From a bacterium (lineage in GTDB: Bacteria; Patescibacteriota; Minisyncoccia; Phycocordibacterales; Phycocordibacteraceae), in NCBI GenBank assembly GCA_037200965.1, contig JBBCGK010000001.1, positions 433,992 through 497,991 of the forward strand: 64,000 nt of DNA, read 5' to 3'. The stretch's first letter is position 1, and the number at the start of each line of letters is the position of its first letter. The notes beneath the pieces were generated by a model. That model was given only the letters and a program-made list of their open reading frames with translations. It did no database searches and was not told where the DNA came from. Below, piece by piece: positions 40,702 through 64,000 of the stretch. A program made the translations under genes and the position numbers.

Positions 40702-40714
40702 GTAAGTGAGCAAC

Positions 40715-40810: not shown

Positions 40811-40812
40811 AC

Positions 40813-45341: not shown

Positions 45342-45453
45342 TATTCGTGCCCAGGATGCGAGGACTCGCCCTAGCCGAAGAACGGATGATGCCCGGATGA
45401 TTTCACCCGTCCAAGAGGAATGTGCGCCTTAGACTTCGTATCGGGCCGGGCCT

Positions 45454-46359: not shown

Positions 46360-46381
46360 CACGAGCGCGGGAAGATACGGC

Positions 46382-46669: not shown

Positions 46670-46865
46670 TCGATCCGATTGATATCTGGCGAAGCGCGCA
46701 AACGCTCATCTCGCTCTATGGCGATGAGGCGGAACAGTTCGCGCTTCGCCGCGCCGCTACCCTGCTCGGCGAAGGAGACCGGGAGGGCCATGCGGCAATG
46801 GCAAGCGTTGCGGAAGCGGTGAAGAAGCTGCGGCAGGAGCGGCCCGAAAGCGGCGATGCCGTCCA

Positions 46866-47339: not shown

Positions 47340-47349
47340 TCTCAGCCTG

Positions 47350-48393
47350 TTACGCCTCCTTCATCCACTCCCGGTGCATGCGCTCCCATTCCGGGCGCGG
47401 CGCTTCGAACTCTTCCCGGAACCACGGCATATGCTCTGGCACGAAGACCGTCTCGCGCAGGAACGCGAGCGTCGATTTGACGGCGGGTTTTGCGGCATGC
47501 ACGCGGTTATATGAGATGTAGAGCTTGCCGGGAAGGCGAAACGCAAGCGGAAGGGCGACGAGGTCCGGGTCGCCAAGCGCGTGGTAGGTAGGTGCGAGCG
47601 CGATGCCCGCGCCAAAATGCAGGCACCGCTCGAAGAAGCTCGTCTGGTTGGTGAGGATCGACACGTTCTTGACGACGTTTCCGCCCGACCATGCGGCCCA
47701 GGATGCCGTGCGCGTCTGATACTGGGCGAGATCGAGCAACCGGTGCTCGCTAAGCGCTTCGCTCGTCTGCGGCGTCCCGTGTTTTTGCAGATAGGACTTC
47801 GACGCGAACAGGGCGTAATGGACGGTCGCGAGCGGCCTCGACACCTGATCCGAATTTCCCGGATCGTAGAAGTGGATGCGGATGTCGAAGCTGTCGCTTC
47901 GGGGCGCGGTGATGTCCTGATCGGGCGATACCTTGAGCTCAATGTTCGGATGCCGTTCGAGGAAGCTCGGCATGAACTGCGCCAGCCAGAGGCTCGCAAC
48001 CCCGTCCGCGACCAGGATGCGGCAGTCGCCTTGAACGCTGCCTCCGCTGTCCTTCGCGTCCCTGCGAAGGAGCGCAATGCATTTGCGCGCCTCAAACGCG
48101 TTCGGAAGCAGACGTTCGCCGAGGTCGGTGAGCGCGCAGCCGTCGGTGCCGCGTATGAATACGCGCCCGCCGATCCACTGTTCGAAGCTGCGCAGCCGCT
48201 TGCTCACGGTTGCCTGCGTTGATCCGAGCATCGCCGCGGCCCGCTTGATGCTGCCGCCCTCGGCGATTGCGAGAAAATAGCGGAGATCGTTCCACTGCTC
48301 GGGCGAGGGGTCATCACTATTGGAAAGTACCATCTTCCGTCCCTTGGCTTCCGGGCGGCGATAATCGAATGGCAATTTAAGCTCCGGCAACAA
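47350..48393 (-). CDS. LysR-family transcriptional regulator
   Basis: LRYFLAIAEGGSIKRAAAMLGSTQATVSKRLRSFEQWIG HTH plus a LysR substrate-binding domain. It is divergent from the GNAT gene. An alternative start is at 48333. Confidence 0.85.
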   Translation of the reverse strand: MLPELKLPFDYRRPEAKGRKMVLSNSDDPSPEQWNDLRYFLAIAEGGSIKRAAAMLGSTQATVSKRLRSFEQWIGGRVFIRGTDGCALTDLGERLLPNAFEARKCIALLRRDAKDSGGSVQGDCRILVADGVASLWLAQFMPSFLERHPNIELKVSPDQDITAPRSDSFDIRIHFYDPGNSDQVSRPLATVHYALFASKSYLQKHGTPQTSEALSEHRLLDLAQYQTRTASWAAWSGGNVVKNVSILTNQTSFFERCLHFGAGIALAPTYHALGDPDLVALPLAFRLPGKLYISYNRVHAAKPAVKSTLAFLRETVFVPEHMPWFREEFEAPRPEWERMHREWMKEA

Positions 48394-48434
48394 AAAAATG
48401 CATAAGGCGCCAGGCGGCGCCGTGGAGTAATTCC

Positions 48435-49601
48435 TTGGAAAAGAACGATTTTAGCGCGATACGAAGCGGTACCTACGGGCCCGAACATGCCGCAGCGCAT
48501 CCCGATGGGGGAAGCGTATGGCTGCGTCCGGCCGGGGTCGGGGATATTCCGTTTGTGCATAGCCTGACCGTCTCGGACATCTCCGCCGAAACGGCACCGG
48601 AGGAGGTTATTCGGGCTGTTCACGCCCGCAATCCCGATGCCCTGTGGCTTATCGAGCGCCAAAGAGGCGGGGAGCCACCGGCCCCTATCGGCTATTTCGG
48701 CTTCCTGCCGCTCACCGATCCCGGTCTCGACGCGCTCAAGGAAGGCGCGCTCGACCGCAAGAGCCCGCCGCTTGAGCTTGTGGCCGAGGGCGGCACGCGT
48801 CCGGCGGCGGTGTACGTGTGGGGCGTCGTGGCGCATCGCCTAGTGCGGGTCACCGCGCCGCTCCTCACCCTCGCGCTTTCGCCTTACATCGACGTTCCCT
48901 TCTACACCGTCTCCCAGACCGAAGAGGGGCTGCGCTCGGCCCGTAGGCGCGGCTTCGTGCCGGTCGATGCGCGGATCGGCGACCGGGGCGGGCTCGTGCT
49001 GCTGCCGCTTGGCAGCCTTCTTGCGCCGCCGCCAAGCAAAGTCGCGCAGCTCGACGTGATCGTGGCCTCGAACGCCGAGCACCTCATGATGTGCGCCTAT
49101 GTTCGCGGCGTGGTGTTCGGCGCGGAGCAGCTCGCCCCCTACCGCGAGGAATTCGACGGCAACGACTTCTGCGGCATCCAGCTTCTGGGGTTCGTGAACA
49201 ACGAGCCTGCGGCAGTGCTTCGCATCCGTCACTTCGCGTCATTCGCGAAATTCGAGCGGTATGCCGTGCTCGAGCGCTTCCGCAAAACGCGGATCAAGTA
49301 CGAAATCCTGGAGTTCGGAATCGAGCTGTGCCGCCGCAAGGGATACACGAAGCTCTACGCGCACTCGCAGGTGCGCCTCGTCCGCTTCTATGAGCGGTTC
49401 GGCTTTCGTCTGTGCGCCGCGCAGCGTCCGCTCGTCTTCGCGGATCACGAATACGTCGAGATCGAAGCCGACCTCGCGCCGCATCCCGAGGCGATCACGA
49501 CCGCCACCGATCCCTACGTGATCATCCGACCCGAAGGGGCGTGGGACAGGCGCGGCGTTCTTGACCAGTCAGCGGCACGGCCCGCGACTAATCCCGTCTA
49601 G
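48435..49601 (+). CDS. GNAT-family N-acetyltransferase (two-domain)
   Basis: C-terminal LERFRKTRIKYEILEFGIELCRRKGYTKLYAHSQVRLVRFYERFGF is the GNAT acetyl-CoA-binding core. Confidence 0.7.
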   Translation: MEKNDFSAIRSGTYGPEHAAAHPDGGSVWLRPAGVGDIPFVHSLTVSDISAETAPEEVIRAVHARNPDALWLIERQRGGEPPAPIGYFGFLPLTDPGLDALKEGALDRKSPPLELVAEGGTRPAAVYVWGVVAHRLVRVTAPLLTLALSPYIDVPFYTVSQTEEGLRSARRRGFVPVDARIGDRGGLVLLPLGSLLAPPPSKVAQLDVIVASNAEHLMMCAYVRGVVFGAEQLAPYREEFDGNDFCGIQLLGFVNNEPAAVLRIRHFASFAKFERYAVLERFRKTRIKYEILEFGIELCRRKGYTKLYAHSQVRLVRFYERFGFRLCAAQRPLVFADHEYVEIEADLAPHPEAITTATDPYVIIRPEGAWDRRGVLDQSAARPATNPV

Positions 49602-49603
49602 GA

Positions 49604-49840
49604 GTGCTCGACATGGCCGGAACGCTCGATTGCTTTGTCCGCCTTGTTGAACTCGACACCTGCGTGCGTGAGTTGGCACAGCGCAAGCGCGCGAATAATA
49701 GGATCAGCATATCCGATCTTGATGACGTTCTCCTGGCGCTTGCTGAAGCTCGGGAAACGATCCAGGACGACGCGTATGACGAGATGGCGAGGCGGCGAGC
49801 GATAACAACGGCGGACATAATGCAGTTCGCAAAAGATTAG
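49604..49840 (+). CDS. Hypothetical small protein
   Basis: 78-aa ORF starting 2 nt after the GNAT stop. No motif recognised. Confidence 0.35.
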   Translation: MLDMAGTLDCFVRLVELDTCVRELAQRKRANNRISISDLDDVLLALAEARETIQDDAYDEMARRRAITTADIMQFAKD

Positions 49841-50107
49841 CGAAAGCGCGCGGCTCTATTCAAAACGCGGCCTACGACAAGTTCGCAACTATTCGTCCGA
49901 CAACACTCGCCCGATAACGGATCATTCGGCAACCAGAGGATAATGAGTATATCGCGGGAGCGAAGCATAGGAGACGATGCAGTGCATAGTCCGTCATAAA
50001 TTCAACGGCGGCATCCTGATGGTAGCTGTATAACAGCGTGGTGCCGGAACTTCCCCTTGTAGCCAATACCGGGCTTCGTTACAAAGCTTCAAGGGGAGGC
50101 TATATGC

Positions 50108-51743
50108 ATGCTTAATCACACCTTTGGAGTGATCTCGCTGGGTCGTTTCCTCACTGCTATACGTCCTGCGCGTTATGCGGTCCGCTCTGCCAATCGAACA
50201 CGCTTCGGCCAAGGGCTGGTCTCGGTCCGCACCCTAGTCGTCGCTGCGTGCGTTGCAATGAGTTGGCTAGCCGCATTGCCGCAAGCCGCCATCGCGAGCA
50301 GCGTCTTGATGAGCGTGCCAGGCGAAAGCGACGTAAACTCGGCGGGTGCCTTCACATATTCACTTCCTATTGCAGTTCCGCCCGGGACTGCCCGCATCGT
50401 ACCGCGACTGTCGCTTGATTATTCCAGTCAAAGCGGCAATGGCCTCCAAGGCCTCGGCTGGTCGCTTTCCGGATTGCCGGCAATAGGAAGATGCGCGCGC
50501 ACGGTGGCGCAAGACGGCGTGCATGGCAGTGTCAATTACGACGGCAGCGACAAATTCTGCTTGGAAGGCCAGCGCCTAGTCGCCCTAAGCGGCGTCTATG
50601 GCGCGAACAATACGGAATATCGTACCGAAATAGAGAGTTTCACCAAAATTATTTCATACGGAACGGCGGGTAACGGGCCAGCCTCGTTCAAAGCGTGGAC
50701 CAAGTCCGGTCAAATCCTGGAATTCGGAAACACGGCGGATTCCCGTATCGAAGCGGTCGGCAAGACAACGGTGCGCGCGTGGGCCGTCAATAAGGTTTCC
50801 GATGCCAAAGGAAACTACGTCACGGTCGAATACACCGACGACCAAACTAACGGAGAGGCGTATCCGGTTCGGATTGATTATACCGGCAATCCCAACGCAA
50901 CGCCGGTGGTTATGCCGTACAATTCCGTGCAGTTCACATACACAACGCGCGCAGATATCACGATTGCCTATCAGGCCGGTTCGCAGCAGAAGATCACAAA
51001 ACTTCTCACCAATATTAAGACTTATCAAGCCGCGAATTTGGTTTCCGACTATCGCCTTGCCTATCAAGCCGGCTCATCGCTCGCACATTCGCGTCTAACG
51101 TCCATCACGTTATGTGATGGGTCGGGTACGCCGGTATGCCTTGCCCCCACGACCTTTGGCTGGCAGGGTGGCAGCGGTAGCCTGCCGACAATGACCGGGA
51201 CCGCATCCACTATCATTCCGACGCAAAGCGGTGATTTCAACGTTGACGGATTAACAGACCCCTTTGTCAAAGCCCCGTATTTTGGAACTCAGAGCGGAAC
51301 GTTCGTCGCGAGCGGCATGACTATAAGCTATACCGACCCCATATCGGGATTGCCGTGGTCGGGTCTAACGGCTTTCCCCAACACAATGGTCGGGTTTGTA
51401 TTGGGTGATACCGACGGAGACGGGTATAGCGACGTCACCGCGATGCGGGGTATCGCACATGGCGCTTATGCCAGGTTGGTGGTTACGCGCAACGACCAGC
51501 TCGGAAATCTTGGTCAGATCGGCCTGATCGATCCGCTGCATGCTGGCGCCATATTCAGCGGCGACTTCAATGGAGACGCGCGCACGGACGTTTTCGTGAC
51601 GGGTGTAGCTTCTTATAACAGTACGACGTATCTGAGCCTGGGGACCGGATCGTTCACCGCCATCAACATGAGTTCGGTATATGAACCCATCACGACCGCC
51701 GATTTTGATGGTGACGGATGCACCGATTTCTTGGGATCGACTA
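50108..51743 (+). pseudogene. SpvB/TcdB-type toxin-complex protein, N-terminal part with FG-GAP/VCBS repeats (3'-truncated at R3)
   Basis: AGAFTYSLPIAVPPGTARIVPRLSLDYSSQSGNGLQGLGWSLSGLPAIGRC is the SpvB N-terminal signature. Later GDFNVDGLTD, GDTDGDGYSD, GDFNGDARTD and ADFDGDGCTDF are FG-GAP/VCBS repeats. The protein sense ends at the repeat, and the track ORF beyond 51743 is read-through into unrelated DNA. Confidence 0.75.
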
Positions 51744-51779
51744 GTTGCACAACCTCCTTTTTACGAACGATCCTGCAGG
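51744..51779 (+). repeat. Array repeat R3
   Basis: Exact 36-mer. Confidence 0.98.
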
Positions 51780-51793
51780 TTTCCGTTAATCTT

Positions 51794-53134
51794 CTAAGTC
51801 TCTTGTTGAGACGCAACACAGCCCCACGCCGCTTTTACCGAGTCATAGATAAAGCCTACCGTCAGAACCTTGGATATAACCGTCGTGGTTGGCAACGCCG
51901 TGCCTTCTGCCACGAACGACGCCCCCCAGGTAATCGCCCGGGCCGTACCGTCGTCTTTGATCCTGAAGATGAGCGTCTGGAAGTTCGTGGGTGTACCGGA
52001 GAGATTTGTCGTCATCGACGTGATCGCGGTCGCAAGAGCAGTAATCGTCACGGCGTCGCACCCATCGCTATTCACTGTAGGGGTTGCCGAAGAAACAATC
52101 GTCGTTATGCGTGGAGTATTTCTCTTATTTGCAAGAGTCTGTGTACCATTGTTAGTCACGACACTGTCAGCGTTTGTGCCTGCAACCGAGATTCTCAAAT
52201 CTCCTGTTCCAACGGTAAGCACTCCTGAGGTGTGCGTTGCAACCCAGTTACCGTTACTAATGTTCCAGGTAAAACCAGTAGCACTAAAGAGATCGGCCCA
52301 TCCAAGCGCGGTCGTCCCAAGAGCGGCAATATCATTCGTGACCGGGGAAAGAGCGGAGGAGGTAAGTTGTATCGTTCCTGTTCCGTTGATAGCCAGACCA
52401 AGCGTATTGGTTGTAGGAAGGTAGAGGCGATTACCGGTAGCAGTTGAAGAGGTAGGAGCAAAGCCAGCCGCAGTTGCCAGCGATGCCAACGTCAAAGCTC
52501 CGGCGTCGGTCAAGGTTGCATTGGTGGATGTTGCTTGTGCGCCGCGCGAAGTACCATCGGACCGAAGTATAGATTCATCTGTGGCAAAAGTGGCGGCAGC
52601 GGTGACTACATTACTCGGTATATCGCTTGTAAGAGCGACGGTACCCGTGGACGCCGGAAGGGTAATGGTGTTAGTTCCAGCGATTGCCGTAGGGACGAGG
52701 GCGATGGTACCGGAAGTTGAACCCGAGAAGGTTACACCCTGGGTACCGGAAATGATGCCAGTGGTGTCAGCAATAAGCACTGCCGAGTTCTGGATCAGCT
52801 TACCAGTGGTAGTGTCGAAGCGGGCCACGGCGTTATCAGTTGCTGAAGCCGGGCCTACAACATAGGTAGCAAGGGAAGCAGTCGTAGGAATAACATAGCC
52901 GCTTTGGAGCGCTATAGCGATCGTTCCGGAAGTAGTGATCGGTACGCCGGATACCGTAAGTCCTGTCGGTACCGTAGCGTCAACGGATGTAACCGTACCT
53001 CCTCCTCCGGGGAGGTCTATAAGAAGCCTGTGCGTCGTCGGGTCTGCATATAGACGCACAGGCGTCTTGCCGTCAGCGCTTGAAGCTGCTATCAGCGTTG
53101 GAACATCGTTCTGGTCTCGGTAAGCATCAGCCAT
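51794..53134 (-). CDS. Phage tail-fibre-like protein
   Basis: 446 aa, Thr/Gly/Ala/Ser-rich beta-repeat sequence with AVARFDTTTGKLIQNSAVLIAD and similar segments typical of phage fibres. Its stop is 14 nt from R3. Confidence 0.6.
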   Translation of the reverse strand: MADAYRDQNDVPTLIAASSADGKTPVRLYADPTTHRLLIDLPGGGGTVTSVDATVPTGLTVSGVPITTSGTIAIALQSGYVIPTTASLATYVVGPASATDNAVARFDTTTGKLIQNSAVLIADTTGIISGTQGVTFSGSTSGTIALVPTAIAGTNTITLPASTGTVALTSDIPSNVVTAAATFATDESILRSDGTSRGAQATSTNATLTDAGALTLASLATAAGFAPTSSTATGNRLYLPTTNTLGLAINGTGTIQLTSSALSPVTNDIAALGTTALGWADLFSATGFTWNISNGNWVATHTSGVLTVGTGDLRISVAGTNADSVVTNNGTQTLANKRNTPRITTIVSSATPTVNSDGCDAVTITALATAITSMTTNLSGTPTNFQTLIFRIKDDGTARAITWGASFVAEGTALPTTTVISKVLTVGFIYDSVKAAWGCVASQQET

Positions 53135-53136
53135 AA

Positions 53137-53327
53137 TCAGGTACTTTGTACGAGTAATTCCCCGGCACTATTGGCGTAGAGCACCACAGGCGTCTTGCCG
53201 TCAGCGCTTGAGACAGCCATGAGTGCAGGAACAAAGTTTGCGTCCCGCAGATCGTCTACCGGCCCAAAGTCCGACCCGGTAGTGTCGTCGTCCGCCATAA
53301 GCGCATGTGTTGAAGGGTCAGCAACGA
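53137..53327 (-). pseudogene. 3' fragment of a second tail-fibre-related gene (5'-truncated at R4)
   Basis: ...ADPSTHALMADDD...LMAVSSADGKTPVVLYANSAGELLV parallels the N-terminus of the downstream fibre protein (LIAASSADGKTPVRLYADPTTHRLL). The frame is open into R4, and the apparent GTG start lies inside the repeat. Confidence 0.55.
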
Positions 53328-53363
53328 GTTGCACAACCTCCTTTTTACGAACGATCCTGCAGG
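53328..53363 (+). repeat. Array repeat R4
   Basis: Exact 36-mer. Confidence 0.98.
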
Positions 53364-53460
53364 AGTATGAGTACTGATACCGTCCAATCTGCCATTGAAT
53401 ATGCGCGACACTCGCCGTCGTGACGACGTTGAGTTAAGTCAATGGCGATTTATGTTACTG

Positions 53461-53982
53461 TCACCGGACCGGCACGAACCCTTCGGGAAGAAACTGCGTC
53501 GGGTCCTTCCACGGTTCAATAGCAACTGCTTTGGGGTATTTGCTTATCATGTAAGCATCGGTGCAATACACCAAACTTTCGGGATCATCGTCCGAAGGCT
53601 CAAGGCCTGAAAATTCAACCATCACAGATTTCTGGTTGGTAATTTTTCCAAAGGTGTCAATGAACCGCTTGATTTTGTCAAACTCACGCACAAAATCGTC
53701 GGGCTCAAATAGATAGGAATACACTACTACTGTATTCTCGCCGACGATCCGTTCGGAACCGTCCTCATTTTTCACGCGGAAACGCCCAGCGGCGAGCGGC
53801 AATTGGGTTACACCGCCATTGATCCGCACCATAATTTCCATGGCGCTATCGACCCATTTGTCAAAATTTTCAACAGGCTTCTGATCGCGATCTTGGTTAG
53901 GCAAATAAACTGCAAACCGTTGTACCGATTCAGATGTATCGGCACCTAGCGCGGTCTTGAGGTCAAAATCTACGAGCGCCAT
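53461..53982 (-). CDS. Hypothetical protein
   Basis: 173-aa ORF with normal composition. No motif recognised. Confidence 0.5.
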   Translation of the reverse strand: MALVDFDLKTALGADTSESVQRFAVYLPNQDRDQKPVENFDKWVDSAMEIMVRINGGVTQLPLAAGRFRVKNEDGSERIVGENTVVVYSYLFEPDDFVREFDKIKRFIDTFGKITNQKSVMVEFSGLEPSDDDPESLVYCTDAYMISKYPKAVAIEPWKDPTQFLPEGFVPVR

Positions 53983-54068
53983 GATCGCTTCCTATTAGCC
54001 ATCAATGAAAAGGCCCCATAGCCGGGGCCTTAAAGTAGGCAAAATGCCAAATTGCAACGCTGATGCCG

Positions 54069-54738
54069 CTACCGCGGTCTTGAAGGTCTCCGAATTCCGA
54101 GCACCGTTTTAGGGTCCCGCTTGATCTTTAGAAACCGTCCAAATCCCGAACGAGCGTCTTCAGGTTTCTCCGCTTGTTGGGAAGCTGAACGAATCGCTGT
54201 CACTATCTCGTTAGCAGCTTCTGATATGGGCGGCAAATTTTGCCGGTTATAGTCGCCTGGCGGGATTCCCGCGTGCTTCTTTTTCATATGATTTTCTCCT
54301 GTTTCTTCACAGGGTTGCGACCCATCGGTCTCAGCCCCGTGTTGATCGGGAGAAAGCCCTTCAAGAATCGGGCCGCGTACGTCGGTTTCCCAGGTTAAGG
54401 CTTCGACGCGAATATCCTGGCCACGGTCCGTCCTTATGCTTTCGCGATGGGGACCATACCCACATAGTACCACAGCGGCATGCGTAGTCGCGCCCGAAAT
54501 CTCGTGGACTATATCCGCAGCAGCGCCAATACCAGCGCCCGTTACTATCAAGTCATAGACCATCAAGATGCGATCACCGGAAAGCGGTTTGTCTGCCGTT
54601 ATTGCTACGCCCTTCGCCCAACGCGTCTCGCGATAGATGCAGGCGGGCAATCCGGTTTCGGCGACGAGGGACGAGAGCATCGAAATCGCGCCGACCGGCC
54701 CCATCTCTTTTTCGATAAAGCACAATCGCGTAATGCCG
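54069..54738 (-). pseudogene. Phosphoribosyltransferase-domain protein (probably 5'-truncated at R5)
   Basis: GDRILMVYDLIVTGAGIGAAA is the PRPP-binding loop of type I PRTases. The frame is open back into R5, with only a TTG start at 54725. The usual 40 or so N-terminal residues of the PRT fold appear to be missing. Confidence 0.55.
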
Positions 54739-54774
54739 GTTGCACAACCTCCTTTTTACGAACGATCCTGCAGG
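54739..54774 (+). repeat. Array repeat R5
   Basis: Exact 36-mer. Confidence 0.98.
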
Positions 54775-55372
54775 AAACCATGAGAGAACCCGAGTTGATC
54801 TCGGTGGCCACGATCTTCAAAGGCGACAACTCGTTAAATTCCTCATAGTTCAGGTCAGCGAACCGAATTCGATCAGGCACTCCATCGTGATCACGACCAT
54901 TTGCGGCATATAATTCCCGCATACGTTCTCGAAGAACTGTGTTGATGAATTCACGAATGGGCGTTGTGGTGAAAAAGCCTAAGTGCCGCCATATGCGCAG
55001 CATTCCAAACGTAACTAGGGGAGCTGTTAAAAAAGACAATAATACACCCCCCAACGCCGTAGCGGACAATGCCCATCGAAGTCCCTGGCGGAGGCGAACA
55101 AATCTACGCCAATCATCAGCCCCCAATAACGTTACGGGGGTCAAGTTATGTAGGCTGAGAATATTTTGATCCCTAATGTCGGGATTCATCAAAGTCGAAG
55201 CACTGTATCCCGCCGCGACTAGCGTTGCCACGATCGCGCCAGCTGACGCCCCGGCTACACCTACGAAGGCGAGCCCATTCTTCGCGGCACCCTCCAAAGC
55301 ACCAATATGCGCTATGCCCTTAGCACCGCCACCTTCGAATATGCCAAAGGCTGGCCTCTTAGCGTCCATCAC
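54775..55372 (-). pseudogene. Patatin-like phospholipase, N-terminal part (3'-truncated at R5)
   Basis: FEGGGAKGIAHIGAL (oxyanion GGGxxG) and GASAGAIVA (GxSxG nucleophile). The catalytic Asp (DGG/DGA) region is absent because the sequence runs into R5. The track ORF 54605-55372 continues as unrelated read-through. Confidence 0.75.
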
Positions 55373-55505
55373 TGTATGTATCCTTTCGCAAATCAGGTCG
55401 GGGCCTGCACAAACGACAGAACATCGGACAGGCTGGTGAAATAATGAGATACCAGCCTTCGCACATTGCTGTTCCGCATACAGATACAGCAGTTGCTAGT
55501 TCAAA

Positions 55506-57077
55506 TCAGTTCAGTTGCTCCCGCACCAACGAAAGATCGTTGAACAACGTTCTCGTAAGATTCGGGATTTTTTCCAGTTTGTCTGCTTGTATTAACTTCG
55601 CCATAAAACGAATGCTTCCCTCCACTCGCTCGTCATAGAATATTTCGTGCAGAAACTTCCGCCCCTGCCGCAAATCCGTAGCATCAAACAGAAATTCCAG
55701 CTTGGCTTCGTTATCGACCATAGCAACTGCACGCCAAAAGAATCGAGGAAAATTCGCTGTCAGGAGGCTCTTGCGGACTATCTTGCTTAGGGAGGAGCGC
55801 GAAACAATCTCGCGTTTCAGATCGCTTGGGCCATTCAAAAATATGTCCCACTCGAAACGAGCCATATCACTATTGCTCGATAATTTTTTAAGCATCTCTA
55901 AAATATGATCAAATGCCAGGATAGCATCGTACACGTCGTCAAATCGGACGCGAATTTTGCTATAGAGCGGCACGAGACACAAATCCGCGCGAGCACGGGT
56001 TATCTTCGTCCCACGCTTTCGAGACCAAGTTGTCGTTATGATGTTAGATGGGCCGCTCAGCTTGATCTCAGAGTATGGGCCGATGCCGTCGTCATGCGCA
56101 TACAGTTTGGTTATGCGCGTCGCCCGTAGAAGAAAACCCGTGCGAGGTTCGGGTACTATGGGACCAGTTGTGGGCCCAAGGCCGCTGAGTGCGACCGCGT
56201 GAAATGCTCGTTTGCTTTTCTTGGAGCGTTCTAAGTTGAAGTCAAAACTCAGAATGATCGGAATATTGCCCCTCAAGAATGCATTTGCTGCGGCTTGGAT
56301 ATTGGCTCGCTCGGGCGTCATAAACAAATCCGCTTCGAGACCGACATTGCGCAAAACGCCAGCCATTTGATCGATATCCAAGCCGTCGTTCGGGAGAGCT
56401 AGGCCAGCTGTTGGCAGCGAAGCAAACGCTCGTTTGGTTATTTCAATAGGTGATAAGATTGGATTGTCATACAAATTCGCCGTGCCATGCAGTGTAGTCC
56501 ACAGAGCGCTGGTAGCGCATGCGCCAACCTCTCGGTCTTGTTCTTGAAAAGGCAGCGCACGTACAGGCAGATCTATGCCGAAAAGATTTGGTACATATCC
56601 GCGCTCAGTGAGGAAGCGACTCGATGGATTACTCCCAACCGGCGCCAAACACGTTCGCCCAATGATGGTTTCGGGAAGAGGTTTGACAACTACAAAGCCG
56701 TGATATCCCAAGACGTCGAACCTACACTCACCGCGGCCCGAAACGAAAAGCGCTTCGACCATATCTTTATCGAACGGTTGCCGAAAAAAGTGAATTCGTG
56801 AACATTCTTTCGGATAGTTCGCGTGGCATCTCGCGTAGTATCCTGTATGATCTTCGGCGAAATGCTTGTCGATGTAGTCGCGCTCAAATACAAGAGTTTC
56901 GATTTTCGCGGCTTCACAGTAACGAGCTAGAAAAATGACCTGGGGCTTTTGTGCAATTTGCTCCAGTCTAGGTTTAAATGCTCCGGCAACAAAAAGCGCT
57001 ACCAAGTTCTCTCGATTGTACTTGAGTACTTGGTAGCGCTCGCCCATGTGATCTAACTGAATATCCGCGTACGTCAC
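55506..57077 (-). CDS. Hypothetical protein with a putative papain-like cysteine peptidase core
   Basis: 523 aa. QEQDREVGACATSALWTTL (Gln...Cys), RAFHAVALSGL (His) and YAHDDGIG (Asp) occur in the order expected for a papain-fold / C39-like peptidase. The assignment is by motif pattern only. Confidence 0.5.
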   Translation of the reverse strand: MTYADIQLDHMGERYQVLKYNRENLVALFVAGAFKPRLEQIAQKPQVIFLARYCEAAKIETLVFERDYIDKHFAEDHTGYYARCHANYPKECSRIHFFRQPFDKDMVEALFVSGRGECRFDVLGYHGFVVVKPLPETIIGRTCLAPVGSNPSSRFLTERGYVPNLFGIDLPVRALPFQEQDREVGACATSALWTTLHGTANLYDNPILSPIEITKRAFASLPTAGLALPNDGLDIDQMAGVLRNVGLEADLFMTPERANIQAAANAFLRGNIPIILSFDFNLERSKKSKRAFHAVALSGLGPTTGPIVPEPRTGFLLRATRITKLYAHDDGIGPYSEIKLSGPSNIITTTWSRKRGTKITRARADLCLVPLYSKIRVRFDDVYDAILAFDHILEMLKKLSSNSDMARFEWDIFLNGPSDLKREIVSRSSLSKIVRKSLLTANFPRFFWRAVAMVDNEAKLEFLFDATDLRQGRKFLHEIFYDERVEGSIRFMAKLIQADKLEKIPNLTRTLFNDLSLVREQLN

Positions 57078-57538
57078 ACTGTGAACGGGATACGCCGACG
57101 GTCAGGAGAAATCTGGTTGGCTTGTTCTCGACTTTCAATTGCCTTGAGCATTGGCGAAAGACGCTTAGCGACTTGCGCAGTAAGATCAGTTCTGGAGGCC
57201 GTCGCCTTGGACTTGGGCCGTGCAGAACTCTTCGTCTTTTTGTGACGCATAGCGCAACCTCCAATTTCGGTGAGCAGGATGTTGCCCTCAGTTCCAGCCC
57301 GGCGGGTATAAACTCCAACACGGGGATCAAAATCAAGCTCATGGACTTGACTTCCTGGAACGGGGCCGCCTAGGGCTCCCCTGTAACGAATCAGCCCTGT
57401 TCTTAACGTACCACGAGCGCCTTCGTATCCCCAATATTTTGTATGTGGATAATCCACCAACACAAGTTCTTTGAATGGTGAGGCTGGCCGTTGCCTTTCC
57501 TCAGTGGCGTCGCCGTCCGTTGACCCAATCGCCTGCAT
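57074..57538 (-). CDS. Hypothetical protein (first gene of the S5 operon)
   Basis: 154-aa ORF overlapping the next gene's start by 4 nt. It has a basic C-terminal half and no recognised motif. Confidence 0.45.
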   Translation of the reverse strand: MQAIGSTDGDATEERQRPASPFKELVLVDYPHTKYWGYEGARGTLRTGLIRYRGALGGPVPGSQVHELDFDPRVGVYTRRAGTEGNILLTEIGGCAMRHKKTKSSARPKSKATASRTDLTAQVAKRLSPMLKAIESREQANQISPDRRRIPFTV

Positions 57539-57677
57539 AACAATTTAATGCCTTCCTTCTGGCAGCAGACCACTAGGAGCGGCAGACGGCCGTTCATTAT
57601 CAGCGTGGATCATTGGCTGGACCGAGCCCCAATCGGTGACTGATTCGTACGGCTAAAGACCGCTCGGGTCAACTAAG

Positions 57678-57713
57678 GTTGCACAACCTCCTTTTTACGA
57701 ACGATCCTGCAGG
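57678..57713 (+). repeat. Array repeat R6 (cas-proximal)
   Basis: Exact 36-mer, 32 bp from the cas2 stop codon (57746). Confidence 0.98.
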
Positions 57714-57745
57714 AGTCCGTGTATATTGAGCGGTAACGCGAATTA

Positions 57746-58042
57746 CTAGACAATCTCAAAGGACTTGATCTTATAATACTCCCCGATAACGGCATCGGCA
57801 GTTGAATTAAGTGCGCATGATTTGCAGGAAGAAAATAGATGCAGCCGATCCCGTTTTCCCGTGAATAGCGATCGCATCTTCATTTCAAATTCCCGGCGCT
57901 CCTTAAAGGAAAGGCGTCCGACGTAGAGAGTCTGTTGAAGTGCGGATAAACCATAGTCCTTTGATAACTTTTCCGCGCGGATCTGGCGCTGCCGATTGGC
58001 GGTTCTCCAGGCGACTATTGCAAGGAAGCATGGATCATTCAT
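57746..58042 (-). CDS. cas2: Cas2-like protein (atypical)
   Basis: 98 aa, overlapping the cas1 stop by 4 nt. The pattern FLAIVAW-R..RQRQIRAEKLSKDYGL-SALQQTLYVGRL-SFKERREFEMKM...DRLHLF follows the Cas2 ferredoxin fold (beta-alpha-beta-beta-alpha-beta). The usual Y-D at the end of strand 1 reads W-R here. Confidence 0.6.
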   Translation of the reverse strand: MNDPCFLAIVAWRTANRQRQIRAEKLSKDYGLSALQQTLYVGRLSFKERREFEMKMRSLFTGKRDRLHLFSSCKSCALNSTADAVIGEYYKIKSFEIV

Positions 58043-59094
58043 GGTGCCGCATATTCAAACGGCACATATAAGGGCGCTTTTTCAAGAAATACCCGGCTTA
58101 AGAGCTCGCTCTGTTCCGTAATGGTATTGCGGAGCGTACGGCGTTTCCCGTGATGGAGGACTTTCGACTCGAGGCGCTTAAGCACCGCCTCAACCACCTT
58201 GCTCTTTCCTTGCGCAGAAAGCCGATATTCGATCTTGCTTACCTGCTCGAAATCGCCGCGCTTGCCAAGTTCCTGAGAAATGAAGAGCGGCATGACTGCA
58301 GCGTCGACGACGGGGACCCGAAACTCTTCGACCAGATCGAGGACGAGCGCGGGCTTGCCGTAACGCTCGGAATGATAAAGTCCGAGATACGGGTCGAGAC
58401 CGATATAAAGGCACGCCCGCTCGACTTCGTTATAGAGGATGCCGTATCCGTAATTAAGAGCGCTGTTGAACTTGTCCCTGCCTTGCGGTATCCGGCCCGG
58501 GAACTTAAAAAGCGATTTCATGCCTTGCCAATAGCGCTCTGCAATGGATCCTTCAAGGCCAAGCAGTTCCTCGTTCACCCGGTTGCTCGGAAGCAGCTTC
58601 GCTATCGACTCAAAAACCGCCTCCGCCTGCATCCGCTCCTTCGCATTCTCCGCACCGTATCGGTCGGCAAGATGGCGCATAAAGCGGATTTGGTTGCGGC
58701 ACTTACCGACAACGAAGGTACGCGCAAGTTCGAAGGATTTAGCCGGATCGGAGGAAGTCGTAAGCTGTGCGCGGCGCAATGTCGCGAGCCCCTTCGGGTC
58801 GCTTGAGAAAATGCGCCCGACGGGTTTCCCAAATGCGCCGAGATAGACGATATCGACTTCGTGCTCGAGCGCGAGTTGCACCGCATGCATGGAAATGGAG
58901 GACGGACGGAGTATGACGATCTTAGCAAGCCGCCGGACCGGATACTCCTTCTTAACCCGGAGAAGCTTTACCGCAGTTCCCCGCTTGCGACGCCTGCCAC
59001 CCCCAAGCGGCTTTCGCGGAACCGGGAGACTGACCGTAATACGCTCGCCCGTCGCGCCGATGAAGCTGCCATAGGTATCTATCAGCAAATCCAT
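58039..59094 (-). CDS. cas1: CRISPR-associated integrase Cas1
   Basis: 351 aa. N-terminal beta domain (LLIDTYGSFIG...), LGLEGSIAERYW (catalytic Glu), NSALNYGYGILY, and GLYHSERYGKPALVLDLVEEFR (catalytic His and Asp/Glu) all match Cas1 motifs. Confidence 0.88.
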   Translation of the reverse strand: MDLLIDTYGSFIGATGERITVSLPVPRKPLGGGRRRKRGTAVKLLRVKKEYPVRRLAKIVILRPSSISMHAVQLALEHEVDIVYLGAFGKPVGRIFSSDPKGLATLRRAQLTTSSDPAKSFELARTFVVGKCRNQIRFMRHLADRYGAENAKERMQAEAVFESIAKLLPSNRVNEELLGLEGSIAERYWQGMKSLFKFPGRIPQGRDKFNSALNYGYGILYNEVERACLYIGLDPYLGLYHSERYGKPALVLDLVEEFRVPVVDAAVMPLFISQELGKRGDFEQVSKIEYRLSAQGKSKVVEAVLKRLESKVLHHGKRRTLRNTITEQSELLSRVFLEKAPLYVPFEYAAP

Positions 59095-59149
59095 GGGGCG
59101 TATATACTACCGCCTTGACCTAGTGTCAAGGATCACGCAACGCCCTCGC

Positions 59150-60580
59150 TTACCCAAGCCTCGGAAACAGATTCTCCGGTTTCTTATTTTCCGTAACCGC
59201 CTCTTTTATTTTCTCGCTCGTCGACGGCATGAAAGGACTGAGGAAACGGGCAATCCAATAGAGCTCGGCGGCGAGCCCGGCAATGATCGCTCTTCCCTTT
59301 TCCGGATCGTTCTTCACGAGCTTGAACGGCTCTTCGGCCGTGATGCGTTCGTCGGCAGCTTGTATGCGCGCGAATATGTAATCGAGCGCCTGATCGAAAC
59401 GGAAAGCTGCGAACGCATCAATATATTCTTTCGGAAACGCTTCCGACGGGGCAGGACGCGCGACCGGCTCCGGAAGGTGCGTCTCGGCAAGCTTCATCAC
59501 ACGCGCGACGAGGTTCCCGAGGCCGTTCGTAAGATTCGCGGTATACCACTCATCAAGCCGCTCCCACGTGACATCGGAATCTTCAACCGGATGCACGTGC
59601 CGAAGCAGCATGTAGCGGGTGGCGTCCGTACCGTATTTCGCAACAAGCTCGCCCGGGCTTATGACATTCCCGAGACTCTTGCTCATCCGCTGCCCGCCGG
59701 AATTTATGAATCCGTGATAGAAGACCTGATCGGTGTTCTTAATGCCGGCCGAAAAGAGCATCGCCTGCCACATAAGCGACTGGAATCGCACCTGATCCTT
59801 CCCTGCCGTCTGGAGCGTTTGTCCTTCCTCCCAGAACTTCTTGAAATTGCCGTCCGCGTCTCCGGGCCATCCGAGCGCCGAGATGTAGTTCGTAAGAGCG
59901 TCGAACCAGACGTACATAACCTGCGTATCGTCTCCCGGAACCGGAACCCCCCACGAAAGCCGCGCTTTCTCGCGCGAGATACTGAAATCCTCGAGCCCTC
60001 CTTTCACGAAGCTGAGCGCCTCCTCCCTCCTCCACTCAGGAATTACGACATCCGGACGGGCGAGGTACTCGATCAGGCGGTCCTGATACTTTGAATATCT
60101 AAAGAAATGATTTTCTTCCGAAATCTCCTGGAGCTCGAGATTTGGGTGGAGCACGCAATGCCCGTCGGCCAGCTCCTTTTCCGTCTTGTACGCTTCGCAT
60201 CCGACGCAATACCAGCCAACATAGGCCTTCTTATATATATCCCCCGCTGCCTCGCACCGCTTCCACATCTCCTCGGCAGCCCTGATATGCTCGGGGCTCG
60301 TCGTCCGCATGAACCCGTCGTTAGTGAGTGCGAGCGTCTCCCTAAGCGAGCGTACCCGTCCCGCATAGTCGTCGACGTAGGCCTGCACATCCTGTCCTAC
60401 TTTTTCGGCTGACTGGAATATCTTTTGCCCGTGCTCGTCGGTTCCAGTCGAGAAAAATACTTCTTCGCCAGAAAGCCGCCAGAAACGCGCAAGCGCGTCG
60501 GCCTGCACAAGCTCGAGCGCGAAGCCGATATGCTGATCGGCATTCACGTACGGAATCGTTGTCGTTACGTATCTCGCCAT
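59150..60580 (-). CDS. metG: Methionine--tRNA ligase
   Basis: TTTIPYVNADQHIGFA (HIGH-type), FSTGTDEHGQKI, CVGCEAYK zinc knuckle and GQRMSKSLGN (KMSKS). Confidence 0.92.
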   Translation of the reverse strand: MARYVTTTIPYVNADQHIGFALELVQADALARFWRLSGEEVFFSTGTDEHGQKIFQSAEKVGQDVQAYVDDYAGRVRSLRETLALTNDGFMRTTSPEHIRAAEEMWKRCEAAGDIYKKAYVGWYCVGCEAYKTEKELADGHCVLHPNLELQEISEENHFFRYSKYQDRLIEYLARPDVVIPEWRREEALSFVKGGLEDFSISREKARLSWGVPVPGDDTQVMYVWFDALTNYISALGWPGDADGNFKKFWEEGQTLQTAGKDQVRFQSLMWQAMLFSAGIKNTDQVFYHGFINSGGQRMSKSLGNVISPGELVAKYGTDATRYMLLRHVHPVEDSDVTWERLDEWYTANLTNGLGNLVARVMKLAETHLPEPVARPAPSEAFPKEYIDAFAAFRFDQALDYIFARIQAADERITAEEPFKLVKNDPEKGRAIIAGLAAELYWIARFLSPFMPSTSEKIKEAVTENKKPENLFPRLG

Positions 60581-61630
60581 TTATGCCGCAAGGCGCGCGC
60601 GCTCCCTGCGCGCCTTGTCAATGTCGCTCACGAACTCCTGGAGAATCGCCGCGAGCGGGACCGAGAGGAAAACCCCGAGGAACCCGGCGAGTTCCCCGCC
60701 CGCGATAAGGGCGACGATGACGAGGAGCGGCGGCACGCCGATGATCTTCTTCACCACGAGCGGGTAGATGAGGTTCGCCTCGAACTGGTTCACGACGACG
60801 AAGAGCCCGGCGACAATGAACGCAAGGGGCGTCCCGCCGAATGTCCAGGCGACGACGATCGCCGGAACCGCCGCGATGAAGGAGCCGAAGACCGGGATGA
60901 TTTCGCACATCGCCGTGAAGATGCCAAGAAGCAGAGCATAGGGAACGCCGAGAATGAGGAGGCCGAGATAGACGAGAATGCCTGCGAGAAGCGACATGAG
61001 AAGCTGTCCCTGCATCCAGAGGCCGATCTTCTGCTGCGAACGCCGCCAGAGGCCGACGACATACTGCTCCTTCGAGACCGGCGTGATGAGGCGTATGAAA
61101 TCCTCGACGCCCGACTCCTGCACGGAGAAATAAAACGAGAGGACGATAACGAGGAAGAGCGAGAACGCGCCGCCGAAGAACGCGGCAAGAAGATTGATCG
61201 CGCCTTGGGAACCGGCCGCAAGCCCGTCGCGAAGCGCGAGCAGCTCGCCAAGCACGTTGCCTCCCCCGCCCTGGTCGGTGAGCGAAGCGGGAAGATTCAC
61301 GCTCTCAAGATAGTGCGGGACGCTTGAGAAGAAGCCGCCCGCCTCGTCGAGTATCGGCGGGAAGAAGAAAAACAGCACGATGAACACCGCGCCGAACACG
61401 ATGAGATACATGGCAAGGACCGCCAACACGCGCGGGAAGCGGTACCGCATAAAGAAATGCACGCCGGGGCGTATCGCCGAGGCGAGGACGACGGCGGTAA
61501 TGAGGAGAAGCACGAGGCCCTTGAGCGTCCAGAGGGCATAGGCGCCCGCGGCGATAACGAGCGCCATGAGCATCGTTCCCGGGGTGATGGTGATCGAGAA
61601 CTGCTTATCCATGGCGGAATAGTAACACAA
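60581..61630 (-). CDS. AI-2E family transporter (PerM/TqsA-like permease)
   Basis: 349 aa, about eight TM segments. EIIPVFGSFIAAVPAIVVA and the C-terminal LSVPLAAILQEF are typical of the family. Confidence 0.8.
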   Translation of the reverse strand: MCYYSAMDKQFSITITPGTMLMALVIAAGAYALWTLKGLVLLLITAVVLASAIRPGVHFFMRYRFPRVLAVLAMYLIVFGAVFIVLFFFFPPILDEAGGFFSSVPHYLESVNLPASLTDQGGGGNVLGELLALRDGLAAGSQGAINLLAAFFGGAFSLFLVIVLSFYFSVQESGVEDFIRLITPVSKEQYVVGLWRRSQQKIGLWMQGQLLMSLLAGILVYLGLLILGVPYALLLGIFTAMCEIIPVFGSFIAAVPAIVVAWTFGGTPLAFIVAGLFVVVNQFEANLIYPLVVKKIIGVPPLLVIVALIAGGELAGFLGVFLSVPLAAILQEFVSDIDKARRERARLAA

Positions 61631-61677
61631 AGGGCGCTCCGAATGGAGCGCCCTGAGTTTCCGTTTCCGGCACTCCT

Positions 61678-62199
61678 TCAGCGTGCCGCAGCGCCAAGCT
61701 GCTCGTCGGGGAGCCTGTCGTCGGGCGACATGAAGAGCGCAACCACCCCAAGGACGACAGACAGAAATCCGAATCCCGGATTAGCTCCGAGGCCTGCGGA
61801 GAGGAGCACGAGCGCGGGCATGGTGAGCGAAATCGTCGTCGCCCCCAAGTGGAGGACCGGGTGTTCGATCGCGTTCACGCTGCGCGGATAGCCGAAGTCC
61901 GAGACGTAAAGCAGAAGAAGCAGTGTGGCTGCGGTACTCGCGACGCCGATCACCCAAGAACCGCCGAGGAAAAGCATGACGGTGCCCGCGGCCGCAAAGA
62001 CTGCCGAAGGCGCCGCAATGGTTGCCTGCATTTTATTCATCTTTTGCAGGATGCCCATGCCGACCGCAAGCAAGAATACAATACCCATCACCCTATTCTG
62101 CTGGGCGAGCACATTGACATGAAACAGGGAGCTGGTGACGTAAAAGTACAAAGGACCGGTTGCCATGAGGGCAGCCGCGAATATCTTGTTCATGAGCAA
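61678..62199 (-). CDS. Hypothetical integral membrane protein
   Basis: 173 aa, five or six hydrophobic segments. Confidence 0.55.
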   Translation of the reverse strand: MLMNKIFAAALMATGPLYFYVTSSLFHVNVLAQQNRVMGIVFLLAVGMGILQKMNKMQATIAAPSAVFAAAGTVMLFLGGSWVIGVASTAATLLLLLYVSDFGYPRSVNAIEHPVLHLGATTISLTMPALVLLSAGLGANPGFGFLSVVLGVVALFMSPDDRLPDEQLGAAAR

Positions 62200-62285
62200 T
62201 CTCCCGATTTGGCACGCAGGATGCGGGCCGAGCCTCTGAGCAGCAGAGTAGCGCTGCTTGTAGAAAGTGCAAGAGGTTCTTCTGC

Positions 62286-63683
62286 TTATGAAAGCGTTGC
62301 CCTTAGTCTCTCGGCAACCTGCCCGACCGTAAGGCGCTCCTGCGCTCCGGTATCCCGGTCGCGAAGCGTCACGGTGTCCTTAAGTTCCGGCATCTCCCCG
62401 AGCGTATCGAAGTCGATTGTCACGCACCAGGGCGTTCCGATCTCGTCCTGCCTCCGGTAGCGCTTGCCGATGTTGCCGTTATCGTCCCAGGCGATTGCCG
62501 GATGGATCTTCTTAAGGGCCGCGCGCACTTCCCTCGCCTTTTCGACGAGTTCCGGCTTGTTTTTGAGGAGCGGAAAGACCGCCGCTTTCACCGGCGCGAC
62601 CTTCGGCGAGAGCGCGAGACGTATCCGCTTTTCTCCGCCAAGTTCGTCCTCCTGATACGCATCGAGAAGAATCGCGAAGAACAGGCGCCCGACACCTCCC
62701 GAGGATTCTATGATGTGCGGGATGAAGCGGGTGCCGCTTTCTTCGTCGAAGTAATCGAGCGACTTCCCGCTTCCTTTCGAGTGCTGCGTAAGGTCGTAAT
62801 CGCCGCGCGCGTGAATACCCTCGAGCTCGTCGAACCCCCACGGGAAACGATATTCGATATCCCACGCGTCTTTCGCATAGAACACGAGATTCTCATGCCG
62901 TTTCCAGCGAAGATTGTCCGCGTCAAATCCCAGTTCGAGGATCGCATTCCATCGGTACTCCCTGAGTTTCTCGTACTCGGACATCTCCTGCTCCGGACGC
63001 GTAAAATACTGCATTTCCATCTGTTCGAACTCGCGCCCGCGAAAGAGAAACTGCCGCGGCGATATTTCGTTCCGGAACGCCTTGCCGATCTGCGCGATGC
63101 CAAACGGCAATTTCATGGGGTTCGAGTCGAGCACGTTCTTGTAGTCCACGTAAATGCCCTGGCATGTCTCTCCGCGAAGATATGCCGGGGCGCTGCCCTG
63201 TTCGGTGAAGTCGCCGAGATTCGACTTCACGAGCAGATTGAACTTTCGCGCCAGAGAGAAATCGTGGCTCCCGCACTTCTCGCACGCGATTTCCGCCCGG
63301 TGCGCGTCGAAGAGCTTGTTTATCTCGTCCTCGCTCATCTTCTCGTCAGCCACGATTCCTATCGATTCGAGCGCCTTATCAACCCGTATGCGCGTATTGC
63401 ACACCTTGCACTCCGCCATCGGGTCTGAGAAGCCTTTCGTATGGCCGCTCGCTTCCCAGACGCGCGGATTCATGAAGATCGCCGCATCGAGGCCGACGAT
63501 ATCGTCCCGATCGTATACCATCTTTCTCCACCACTGCGCTTTCAGGTTGTTTTCGAGTTCGACGCCGAGAGGGCCGAAATCGTAGACCCCGGCGAAACCG
63601 CCGTAGATTTCGGAGCTCGGATACACGAACCCCCGGCGCTTCGCGAGCGACACGATCTTCTCCATCTTGTCCGCAGCCTCCAT
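62286..63683 (-). CDS. glyQS: Glycine--tRNA ligase (dimeric class II type)
   Basis: MEKIVSLAKRRGFVYPSSEIYGGFAGVYDFGPLG, FRNEISPR, GIAQIGKAFRNE and an anticodon-binding C-terminus. The start is probably at MEKIVSL (63665). Confidence 0.92.
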   Translation of the reverse strand: MEAADKMEKIVSLAKRRGFVYPSSEIYGGFAGVYDFGPLGVELENNLKAQWWRKMVYDRDDIVGLDAAIFMNPRVWEASGHTKGFSDPMAECKVCNTRIRVDKALESIGIVADEKMSEDEINKLFDAHRAEIACEKCGSHDFSLARKFNLLVKSNLGDFTEQGSAPAYLRGETCQGIYVDYKNVLDSNPMKLPFGIAQIGKAFRNEISPRQFLFRGREFEQMEMQYFTRPEQEMSEYEKLREYRWNAILELGFDADNLRWKRHENLVFYAKDAWDIEYRFPWGFDELEGIHARGDYDLTQHSKGSGKSLDYFDEESGTRFIPHIIESSGGVGRLFFAILLDAYQEDELGGEKRIRLALSPKVAPVKAAVFPLLKNKPELVEKAREVRAALKKIHPAIAWDDNGNIGKRYRRQDEIGTPWCVTIDFDTLGEMPELKDTVTLRDRDTGAQERLTVGQVAERLRATLS

Positions 63684-63711
63684 ATCGAATCCGTTATAGC
63701 AAAGCCGCGGA

Positions 63712-64000
63712 TTATTGCACGTCCGACGTGTCCGGACGGTACGCCGGATCGCGGTCCATTTGCGTCGTGACGACGCTTCCCTGTCCCGTGACCGTCACCT
63801 GCGCGAAACGGTCGACGCCCGTGATCGTCGGCGCGTTTACCAAGACCGGACTTCCCCCGCGCTGGTTGACGCTTGGCGTGAAGCCGATCTGGAACATCGC
63901 CTGAGCCGAGGCGCCTGCGGCTATGTCGCCCGCGCTCCAGGTAACGGTGCGGGACGACGGGTTATAGGAAACGGAACCGTCGGCGGGAGAGGTCGCGCCG
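63712..64000 (-). CDS. C-terminal part of a beta-rich surface/repeat protein (5' end outside the window)
   Basis: The frame is open to the window edge: ...SYNPSSRTVTWSAGDIAAGASAQAMFQIGFTPSVNQRGG...VTVTGQG resembles DUF11-type conserved-repeat domains. Confidence 0.45.
   Translation of the reverse strand, partial: GATSPADGSVSYNPSSRTVTWSAGDIAAGASAQAMFQIGFTPSVNQRGGSPVLVNAPTITGVDRFAQVTVTGQGSVVTTQMDRDPAYRPDTSDVQ

Follow-up and report, generated by a model that had tools for sequence, protein, structure and literature searches.

The window analysed here, a stretch of 64,000 nt from contig JBBCGK010000001.1 of assembly GCA_037200965.1 (a member of the Phycocordibacteraceae, Patescibacteriota), carries an array resembling CRISPR (short palindromic repeats that are clustered and regularly interspaced) beside the adaptation genes cas2 and cas1. 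The cas-proximal insert of this array, S5, lies between the repeats R5 and R6 and holds three minus-strand open reading frames (ORFs), for a small basic protein, a large papain-like protein and a patatin-like phospholipase (Table 1). A preliminary description of this DNA placed the three ORFs correctly and read them as a tightly coupled three-gene operon, a candidate defence or toxin module with a patatin effector of the type known from cyclic oligonucleotide-based anti-phage signalling systems (CBASS). Our combined findings suggest that S5 is probably not such an operon, but rather a foreign fragment between CRISPR-type repeats that holds an intact two-gene cassette together with a dead piece of a patatin gene. 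The small protein and the peptidase of this cassette are the conserved unit of a large, unnamed and patchily distributed family.

Table 1 Features of insert S5 and of the adjoining repeats and cas genes, in window coordinates (aa, amino acids).
Feature	Position	Strand	Description
Insert S5	54776..57677	.	2,902 bp of foreign-composition DNA between R5 and R6
Repeat R5	54739..54775	.	exact 36-nt copy
Repeat R6 (GTTGCACAACCTCCTTTTTACGAACGATCCTGCAGG+A), cas2-side copy	57678..57714	.	exact 36-nt copy; one of six in the window
cas2	57746..58042	-	PADLOC Cas2b 9.4e-07; Pfam CRISPR_Cas2 0.0034, below gathering score
cas1	58039..59094	-	Pfam Cas_Cas1 1.1e-63; PADLOC Cas1 3e-68
Patatin-like phospholipase gene fragment	54776..55372	-	first 199 codons only, cut by R5; Pfam Patatin 3.7e-13
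Large gene, unnamed three-domain protein	55506..57077	-	523 aa from GTG 57077, or 513 aa from ATG 57047
N-terminal alpha/beta domain, ~residues 1-169	56571..57077	-	invariant K44, D70, D76, Y81, Y88, R94, H96; KPLP motif
Central papain-fold (clan CA) cysteine peptidase domain (predicted), ~residues 170-372	55962..56570	-	Gln180, Cys187, His293, Asp329/Asp330
Small partner gene, 58 aa (MRHKK...RRRIPFTV), basic	57074..57250	-	ATG with GGAGG 7 nt upstream; P-x-T-[LVI] tail
In-frame upstream extension (makes the 154-aa ORF)	57251..57538	-	probably not coding; no homologues, no family

The large gene encodes a protein of three domains, the third being C-terminal. In an alignment of 47 family sequences, Gln180, Cys187 (within ACATSALW), His293 (HAVA) and His328-Asp329-Asp330 (YAHDD) are invariant. 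Structure prediction, which the preliminary description had proposed as a check, returned a peptidase fold: the AlphaFold model (predicted local distance difference test, pLDDT, 89.5; predicted template modelling score, pTM, 0.90) has Cys187 at a helix N-terminus, with His293 and Asp329 on strands, as expected for a papain fold. The predicted protein has the features of clan CA, namely a papain-like fold with an oxyanion Gln, a catalytic Cys, a His and a third residue, Asp, in this order, and the model and the sequence invariance together bear out the Gln-Cys-His-Asp arrangement that had been suspected. We regard the large protein as a predicted papain-fold cysteine peptidase. No solved relative was found for the fold of the N-terminal domain, and a sequence search of the PDB with the family profile gave nothing meaningful. 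There is no detectable sequence similarity to the staphopains (family C47) or to double-glycine C39 peptidase domains, and the protein further differs from both in that its peptidase domain is flanked by two further domains and that a small ORF lies upstream in most family loci. Reading the sequences by eye revealed no evident signal peptide in either the small or the large protein, and the latter looks cytoplasmic.

Homologues of the large protein are numerous and taxonomically widespread. A word-indexed search returned at least 508, and 293 hits in species-representative genomes fell in Proteobacteria, Bacteroidota, Planctomycetota, Cyanobacteria, Nitrospirota and others. An exhaustive profile search yielded 4,872 clusters at 50% identity (E ≤ 1e-3), 2,379 of them with E ≤ 1e-30; the nearest relatives are 47-49% identical to the window protein. 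The family has no name. Neither the small nor the large protein matches anything in Pfam, NCBIfam, PHROGs or PADLOC (PADLOC-DB v2.0.0 has no family for either at E ≤ 0.01), no homologue of the large protein carries a precomputed Pfam domain, the source databases label the family proteins 'hypothetical', and nothing of relevance came up in literature searches for a papain-like defence family. In an exact-protein look-up, the large protein and the Cas1 of the window were found only in assemblies of this organism, with neither a donor nor variant arrays.

A small ORF is the only conserved neighbour of the large gene. When all flanking ORFs were clustered, such ORFs formed groups of 37, 10 and 4 loci, and in every case they lay directly upstream on the strand of the large gene. 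Upstream sequence was long enough in 78 loci; in most of them the large gene starts where a small ORF of ~55-70 aa stops, and the product of this ORF typically ends in ...D-P-x-x-L-x-E-P-[FIV]-T-[LVI], an ending also seen in the loci on viral contigs. The counterpart in S5 is formed by the last 58 codons of a 154-aa ORF (MRHKK...ISPDRRRIPFTV), with the C-terminal tail Pro-Phe-Thr-Val. These 58 residues align with the small ORFs that precede the genes of the nearest homologues, whereas the remainder of the 154-aa ORF does not. When the 1,212 six-frame ORFs of the window were compared with a hidden Markov model of 52 partners, the 58-aa protein came out on top (E = 0.011), with the C-termini aligned, and the annotation of a second assembly (GCA_015655515.1) likewise calls the gene as 58 aa. 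A homologue search with the whole 154-aa ORF was empty and its N-terminal 98 aa had no match in the 83 homologous loci; because nothing was found, the N-terminal extension is treated as non-coding. The basic partner gene of the preliminary description is real, but its product is most likely 58 aa long and not 154. As for the tight coupling, a 4-nt overlap (GTGA) of the first two ORFs exists if the large gene starts at GTG 57077, whereas the start at ATG 57047 in one assembly's annotation leaves a gap of 26 nt to the small gene and no overlap. Between the patatin ORF and the large gene lie 133 nt, so these two are not coupled in this way.

The patatin ORF does possess the two motifs attributed to it, with GGGAKG at residues 14-19 (GGGxxG) and GASAG at residues 41-45 (GxSxG), and it is indeed cut by R5. 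Its Pfam Patatin match covers profile positions 2-118 of 191. The alignment with full-length relatives (313-335 aa) ends at ...KIVATEINSGSLMV, and the ORF tracks its closest relatives only up to ...PLKIVATEINSGSLMV, the residues beyond being translated repeat; the match stops exactly where R5 starts (54775/54776). Both GenBank assemblies annotate a 254-aa 'patatin' (54605-55372, minus strand), which is a chimera: after 199 patatin codons the frame continues across the repeat and into insert S4. Both the AS..P (AS.A.P) block and the DGG block (YADGG; ...YADGGLVSNLP in homologues) are missing from the fragment and the catalytic Asp is absent. Cut before this residue, the patatin is therefore inactive. 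It shares the GGGxxG and GxSxG motifs and the Pfam Patatin match with CBASS effectors of the CapE type and with the NCBIfam 'anti-phage phospholipase' DS2_1, but differs from them in the missing Asp and in having no cyclase or sensor partner. Its matches to anti-phage phospholipase models (PADLOC Effector, 1.9e-4; NCBIfam DS2_1, 4e-4) both lie far below the cut-off, and no CD-NTase cyclase or other CBASS part was found in S5 or beside it.

The patatin is not a regular companion of the cassette either. By tblastn, motif search, clustering and Pfam counts, none of the 83 loci with a homologue of the large protein has a patatin within ~4-5 kb, so that the conserved co-occurrence expected of a three-gene operon was not found. 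The closest relatives of the S5 patatin sit in unrelated neighbourhoods with a conserved downstream partner of their own, of 200-250 aa (31-32% identity, E down to 1e-33); examples are contigs L091 (3300-5056), where lipase and partner genes overlap by 4 nt, and L093 (6001-7588). This suggests an unnamed two-gene patatin module of which S5 keeps the first 60% only. The S5 patatin therefore represents the first part of another module, one that lay by chance beside the cassette in the donor.

Apart from the small ORF, the neighbours of the cassette vary between genomes. Among the 139 nearest flanking ORFs, PADLOC matches (E ≤ 1e-5) were to mad2 (4), mad3, PtuA, RmrA and capP (3 each) and GajA, type I restriction endonuclease, DRT and AriA (2 each), counts that have no matched background and are not independent, as the PADLOC models overlap. 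Pfam matches among the same ORFs included phage integrases (3) and M78 peptidases (3), and single loci adjoin PIN-TPR-GreABC/HetE-N, NACHT, RelA_SpoT and relaxase genes. Relatives of the large gene occur on four plasmids; no match to the large protein was found in phage genome records. From this company we infer a conflict system, of which such a neighbourhood is the usual signature.

Two further observations concern the surroundings of family members. On a viral contig (L097; IMGVR_UViG_3300011425_000201, 192-11011), a relative of the large gene and a gene for a HerA-like ATPase lie between a lambda-type terminase gpA gene and portal/capsid genes, and we read the pair as accessory cargo inserted among packaging genes. 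In 8 of ~80 loci (for example L014, 627-1529), a ThiF/E1-like gene is found ~2 kb upstream of the cassette, for the most part in opposite orientation, and three of these loci have a few further ORFs in common; a link to ubiquitin-like conjugation systems is possible.

The array in which the S5 cassette resides spans window positions 38559-57714, from a TatD gene through to cas2-cas1. The 36-nt direct repeat GTTGCACAACCTCCTTTTTACGAACGATCCTGCAGG occurs in six identical copies (R1 to R6), at 38559, 40775, 51744, 53328, 54739 and 57678, and no degenerate copies were found in the window. R6 lies 31 nt from the stop codon of cas2, and the solved Cas1 nearest to that of the window is 7cr6 (1.8e-31). 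Spacings between the repeats are irregular (2216, 10969, 1584, 1411 and 2939 nt), which corresponds to inserts of ~2.2, 10.9, 1.5, 1.4 and 2.9 kb. The 64-kb window contains no effector cas genes and no evident leader. Neither the repeats nor S5 matched any Rfam family, CRISPR-DR included, and promoter and terminator scans of S5 gave counts no higher than chance. As minus-strand RNA the repeat folds with -10.4 kcal/mol (z = -2.8).

S5 is compositionally foreign. At 50.6%, its GC content is below that of the core (58.5%; 54.7-62.9% in same-size pieces). The tetranucleotide distance between S5 and the core is 0.40, compared with 0.19 ± 0.03 for core pieces of that size (maximum 0.30), and GC at third codon positions (GC3) is ~51% in its genes, against 65-77% in host genes. 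The 10.9-kb insert S2 is core-like in composition and spans a record junction (see below), and its status as an insert is uncertain. The patatin is not the only gene truncated at a repeat. At R5, a PRTase-like ORF on the other side (54069-54725, minus strand) has lost ~65 N-terminal residues; at R3, an SpvB/FG-GAP ORF (50108-51743, plus strand) has lost its C-terminal part; and at R4, a tail-fibre-like ORF is cut whose intact paralogue matches phrog_3030 at 1e-22. With genes cut at several repeat junctions, the inserts look like arbitrary fragments and not like tidy cassettes. We also considered the repeats as simple insertions into a once-continuous region, and rejected this since the flanks of each repeat do not continue one another.

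Two of the other inserts have contents of their own. S3 (51794-53334, minus strand) carries a tail-fibre-like gene of 446 aa (phrog_3030, 1e-22) and, following it, the N-terminal region of this gene in a second copy; the duplication includes a 74-nt repeat at 53046-53119 and 53174-53247, and the second-copy ORF begins inside R4. Insert S1 carries a short, 343-aa adenylosuccinate-synthetase-like gene (38909-39940, plus strand). The best solved relatives of its product are 2d7u and 5k7x (339/340-aa adenylosuccinate synthetases, 9e-69), ahead of 363-aa chains (6fm1, 1e-42) and a chain named PurZ (7odx, 1e-31), and its PHROG label is '2-aminooxy adenylosuccinate synthetase'; it may be of either the PurA or the PurZ type.

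The junctions of S5 are reproduced in independent sequence. A Logan contig (L009; k = 31, run SRR28211700, 2,961 nt) equals window positions 54746-57706 and has both ends inside the repeat, 29-30 nt each. The second GenBank assembly, GCA_015655515.1 (contig JAATEX010000139.1), aligns to window positions 47300-64000 without gaps at 99.96% identity and has the same repeats and inserts over the cas-proximal part, R3-R6. Seven mismatches separate the two assemblies, including one in S5 and two in cas1. Further from cas1, the window crosses the end/start junction of the 960,259-bp record JBBCBH010010897.1 at 46708/46709, inside S2, and the contig of GCA_015655515.1 stops at window position 47300. 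The continuity of S2, and hence the link of R1-R2 to R3-R6, rests on the record being circular.

Elsewhere in the window, the ribosomal RNA (rRNA) genes are interrupted (1-2093, 14762-14869 and 15891-20235, minus strand). The 23S rRNA gene is ~1.4 kb over length, with a group I intron at 16313-16529, and the 16S rRNA gene is split by an insertion of ~730 nt. Inserted elements may be the source of short repeats that the two rRNA regions share (for example 734-808 and 16317-16414). The interrupted rRNA genes and the 960-kb genome point to a host of the candidate phyla radiation (CPR)/Patescibacteria type.

Several other explanations of S5 were weighed. A CBASS-like three-gene defence or toxin operon, with the patatin as effector and the papain-like protein as its co-factor, would account for the co-orientation and adjacency of the ORFs, the intact N-terminal patatin motifs and the weak matches to anti-phage phospholipase models. 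It is nevertheless very improbable, given that a patatin lies beside none of the 83 homologues, that the relatives of the patatin sit elsewhere with another partner, and that this copy has no catalytic Asp, lies 133 nt away from the large gene and is accompanied by no cyclase or sensor. Mis-joining at repeats, to which metagenome assemblies are prone, could have produced the repeat-S5-repeat arrangement artificially, and the window does cross a record junction. However, the two assemblies, which were deposited separately, are identical over R3-R6 save for the few single-nucleotide differences given above, and the k = 31 contig has both ends of S5 fused to 29-30 nt of repeat. With the junctions reproduced in this way, we give an assembly artefact hardly any credence.

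The function of the cassette also admits readings other than phage defence. The small ORF could encode a precursor that is cleaved by a C39-like peptidase, as in the maturation of bacteriocins or of ribosomally synthesized and post-translationally modified peptides (RiPPs). In that case a leader with a Gly-Gly site would be the part to be conserved, but here it is the extreme C-terminus; the conserved neighbours include neither an ABC transporter nor a modifying enzyme and signal peptides are not evident, and we consider such a pair quite unlikely. The pair could also be a toxin directed at other bacteria with the matching immunity protein or, after the manner of staphopain and staphostatin, a protease and its co-encoded inhibitor, in either case with no anti-phage role; this, too, seems unlikely. 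No secretion-associated domains or neighbouring secretion genes were seen, and many of the neighbours are phage-defence or mobile-element genes. Furthermore, the small protein is encoded upstream and has ~60 aa, unlike staphostatin, which is a larger beta-barrel protein.

We therefore return to S5 as a captured foreign fragment with a two-gene cassette, and propose the following. A foreign fragment would have been inserted at the repeat, with duplication of the repeat as in spacer acquisition. Identical repeats on either side, cas1-cas2 close by, a foreign composition and arbitrary ends are the expected outcome of spacer acquisition, although S5 is ~100 times longer than a normal spacer. The patatin part would come from another module, as the 5' 60% of a lipase gene that was cut at the repeat. 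The cassette itself may be a protease-based conflict module, either for anti-phage defence or of a toxin-antitoxin-like kind. The conserved tail of the small protein and the tight coupling of its gene to that of the peptidase suggest that this protein, by means of its invariant C-terminal tail, may plug the active site, regulate the peptidase or be processed by it. What remains of the defence or toxin module of the preliminary description is the two-gene core, for which such a role is reasonable but unproven; the patatin is not part of the module. More tentatively, and with considerable doubt, we suggest that Cas1-Cas2 here inserts kilobase-sized foreign DNA at the repeat. On this view S5, like its neighbours, would represent a giant spacer or a captured gene cassette, and the locus a living intermediate between casposons and CRISPR adaptation, or a Cas1-driven analogue of integrons that banks whole modules.

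The locus resembles several known systems without coinciding with any of them. It shares with CRISPR arrays the identical 36-nt direct repeats around each insert, the adjacent cas1-cas2 and the foreign inserts with arbitrary ends. Normal CRISPR spacers are tens of bases long, whereas the inserts in the window are irregular and measure 1.4-10.9 kb, and effector genes and an evident leader are lacking in the window. Of the hallmarks of a canonical array, near-identical repeats (about 23-55 nt) and cas1 with cas2 are present and short regular spacers are not, and the literature yielded no precedent for kilobase-long CRISPR spacers or for such arrays. With casposons, transposons that depend on Cas1, the locus would have in common that an integrase of the Cas1 family could insert kilobase-sized DNA with target-site duplication (PMC5137440, PMC6977970). 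The window differs from these elements in the presence of Cas2, in the absence of terminal inverted repeats and of a polymerase gene from S5, and in that its inserts are unrelated fragments and not copies of one element. Sedentary chromosomal integrons store defence systems (bioRxiv 10.1101/2024.07.02.601686), and the array is like an integron cassette array in having gene-sized units separated by a short repeat. Its repeats, however, are identical and not diverse, and genes are cut at the junctions. Gene calls on both sides of the array in the window included no tyrosine recombinase of the Phage_integrase family.

A search for the exact 36-nt repeat in the metagenomes of the Joint Genome Institute (JGI) gave no match, and a 22-nt half of it matched one JGI contig (Ga0105164_10033715, L101). 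This contig carries, at 204-2251, four related repeats (CCTGCR...variable...AAAAGGAGGTYGTGCAAC) with conserved ends and a variable middle, 458-797 nt apart. They separate complete small genes, which encode a membrane protein, an RHH + PemK/MazF-like (MazEF-like) toxin-antitoxin pair and a 119-aa secreted protein; each repeat begins 4-10 nt past a stop codon, and the set adjoins a release-factor gene. Gene-sized units between repeats of this type therefore recur. The set looks like an integron cassette array, on a contig too short to show an integrase or cas gene. DNA folds of the window repeat and of the four L101 variants were weak and mutually inconsistent, with no consistent hairpin. An 18-nt piece of the repeat had one single-copy match in viral contigs, which lay inside a coding sequence and was judged to be due to chance.

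A number of points weigh against our interpretation, both of the insertion and of the cassette. Insertion by Cas1-Cas2 is deduced from the anatomy of the locus alone, and it conflicts with the length-ruler behaviour for which Cas1-Cas2 is known. As to a donor of S5, the nearest homologue of its large protein is just 49% identical, and distant blastn searches with the S5 DNA found no match in plasmids and phages. The large gene has an ambiguous start codon. The window small protein matches the main partner clade weakly (E = 0.011), and its assignment rests mainly on its position, its C-terminal tail and four closer relatives. The conflict role is drawn from genomic context, the functions of the family members are all predicted, and the defence enrichment around them, with overlapping PADLOC models and no matched background, is only indicative. 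Expression of the cassette in this host, or its usefulness there, is putative.

Our findings correct an attractive three-gene reading of this locus, as the combination of protease and patatin is an accident of where the fragment was cut. They define instead a large unnamed two-gene family, with a tailed small protein and a three-domain protein with a predicted papain-fold peptidase (~4,900 clusters at 50% identity, in many phyla), and the genomic company of this family makes it a candidate for a new protease-based conflict system. The most unusual aspect of the locus is the presence, in two assemblies, of gene-sized foreign fragments between identical CRISPR repeats beside cas1-cas2. If it is true that Cas1-Cas2 made these insertions, this would bear on the evolution of CRISPR adaptation from transposition, as well as on how bacteria with reduced genomes acquire genes.

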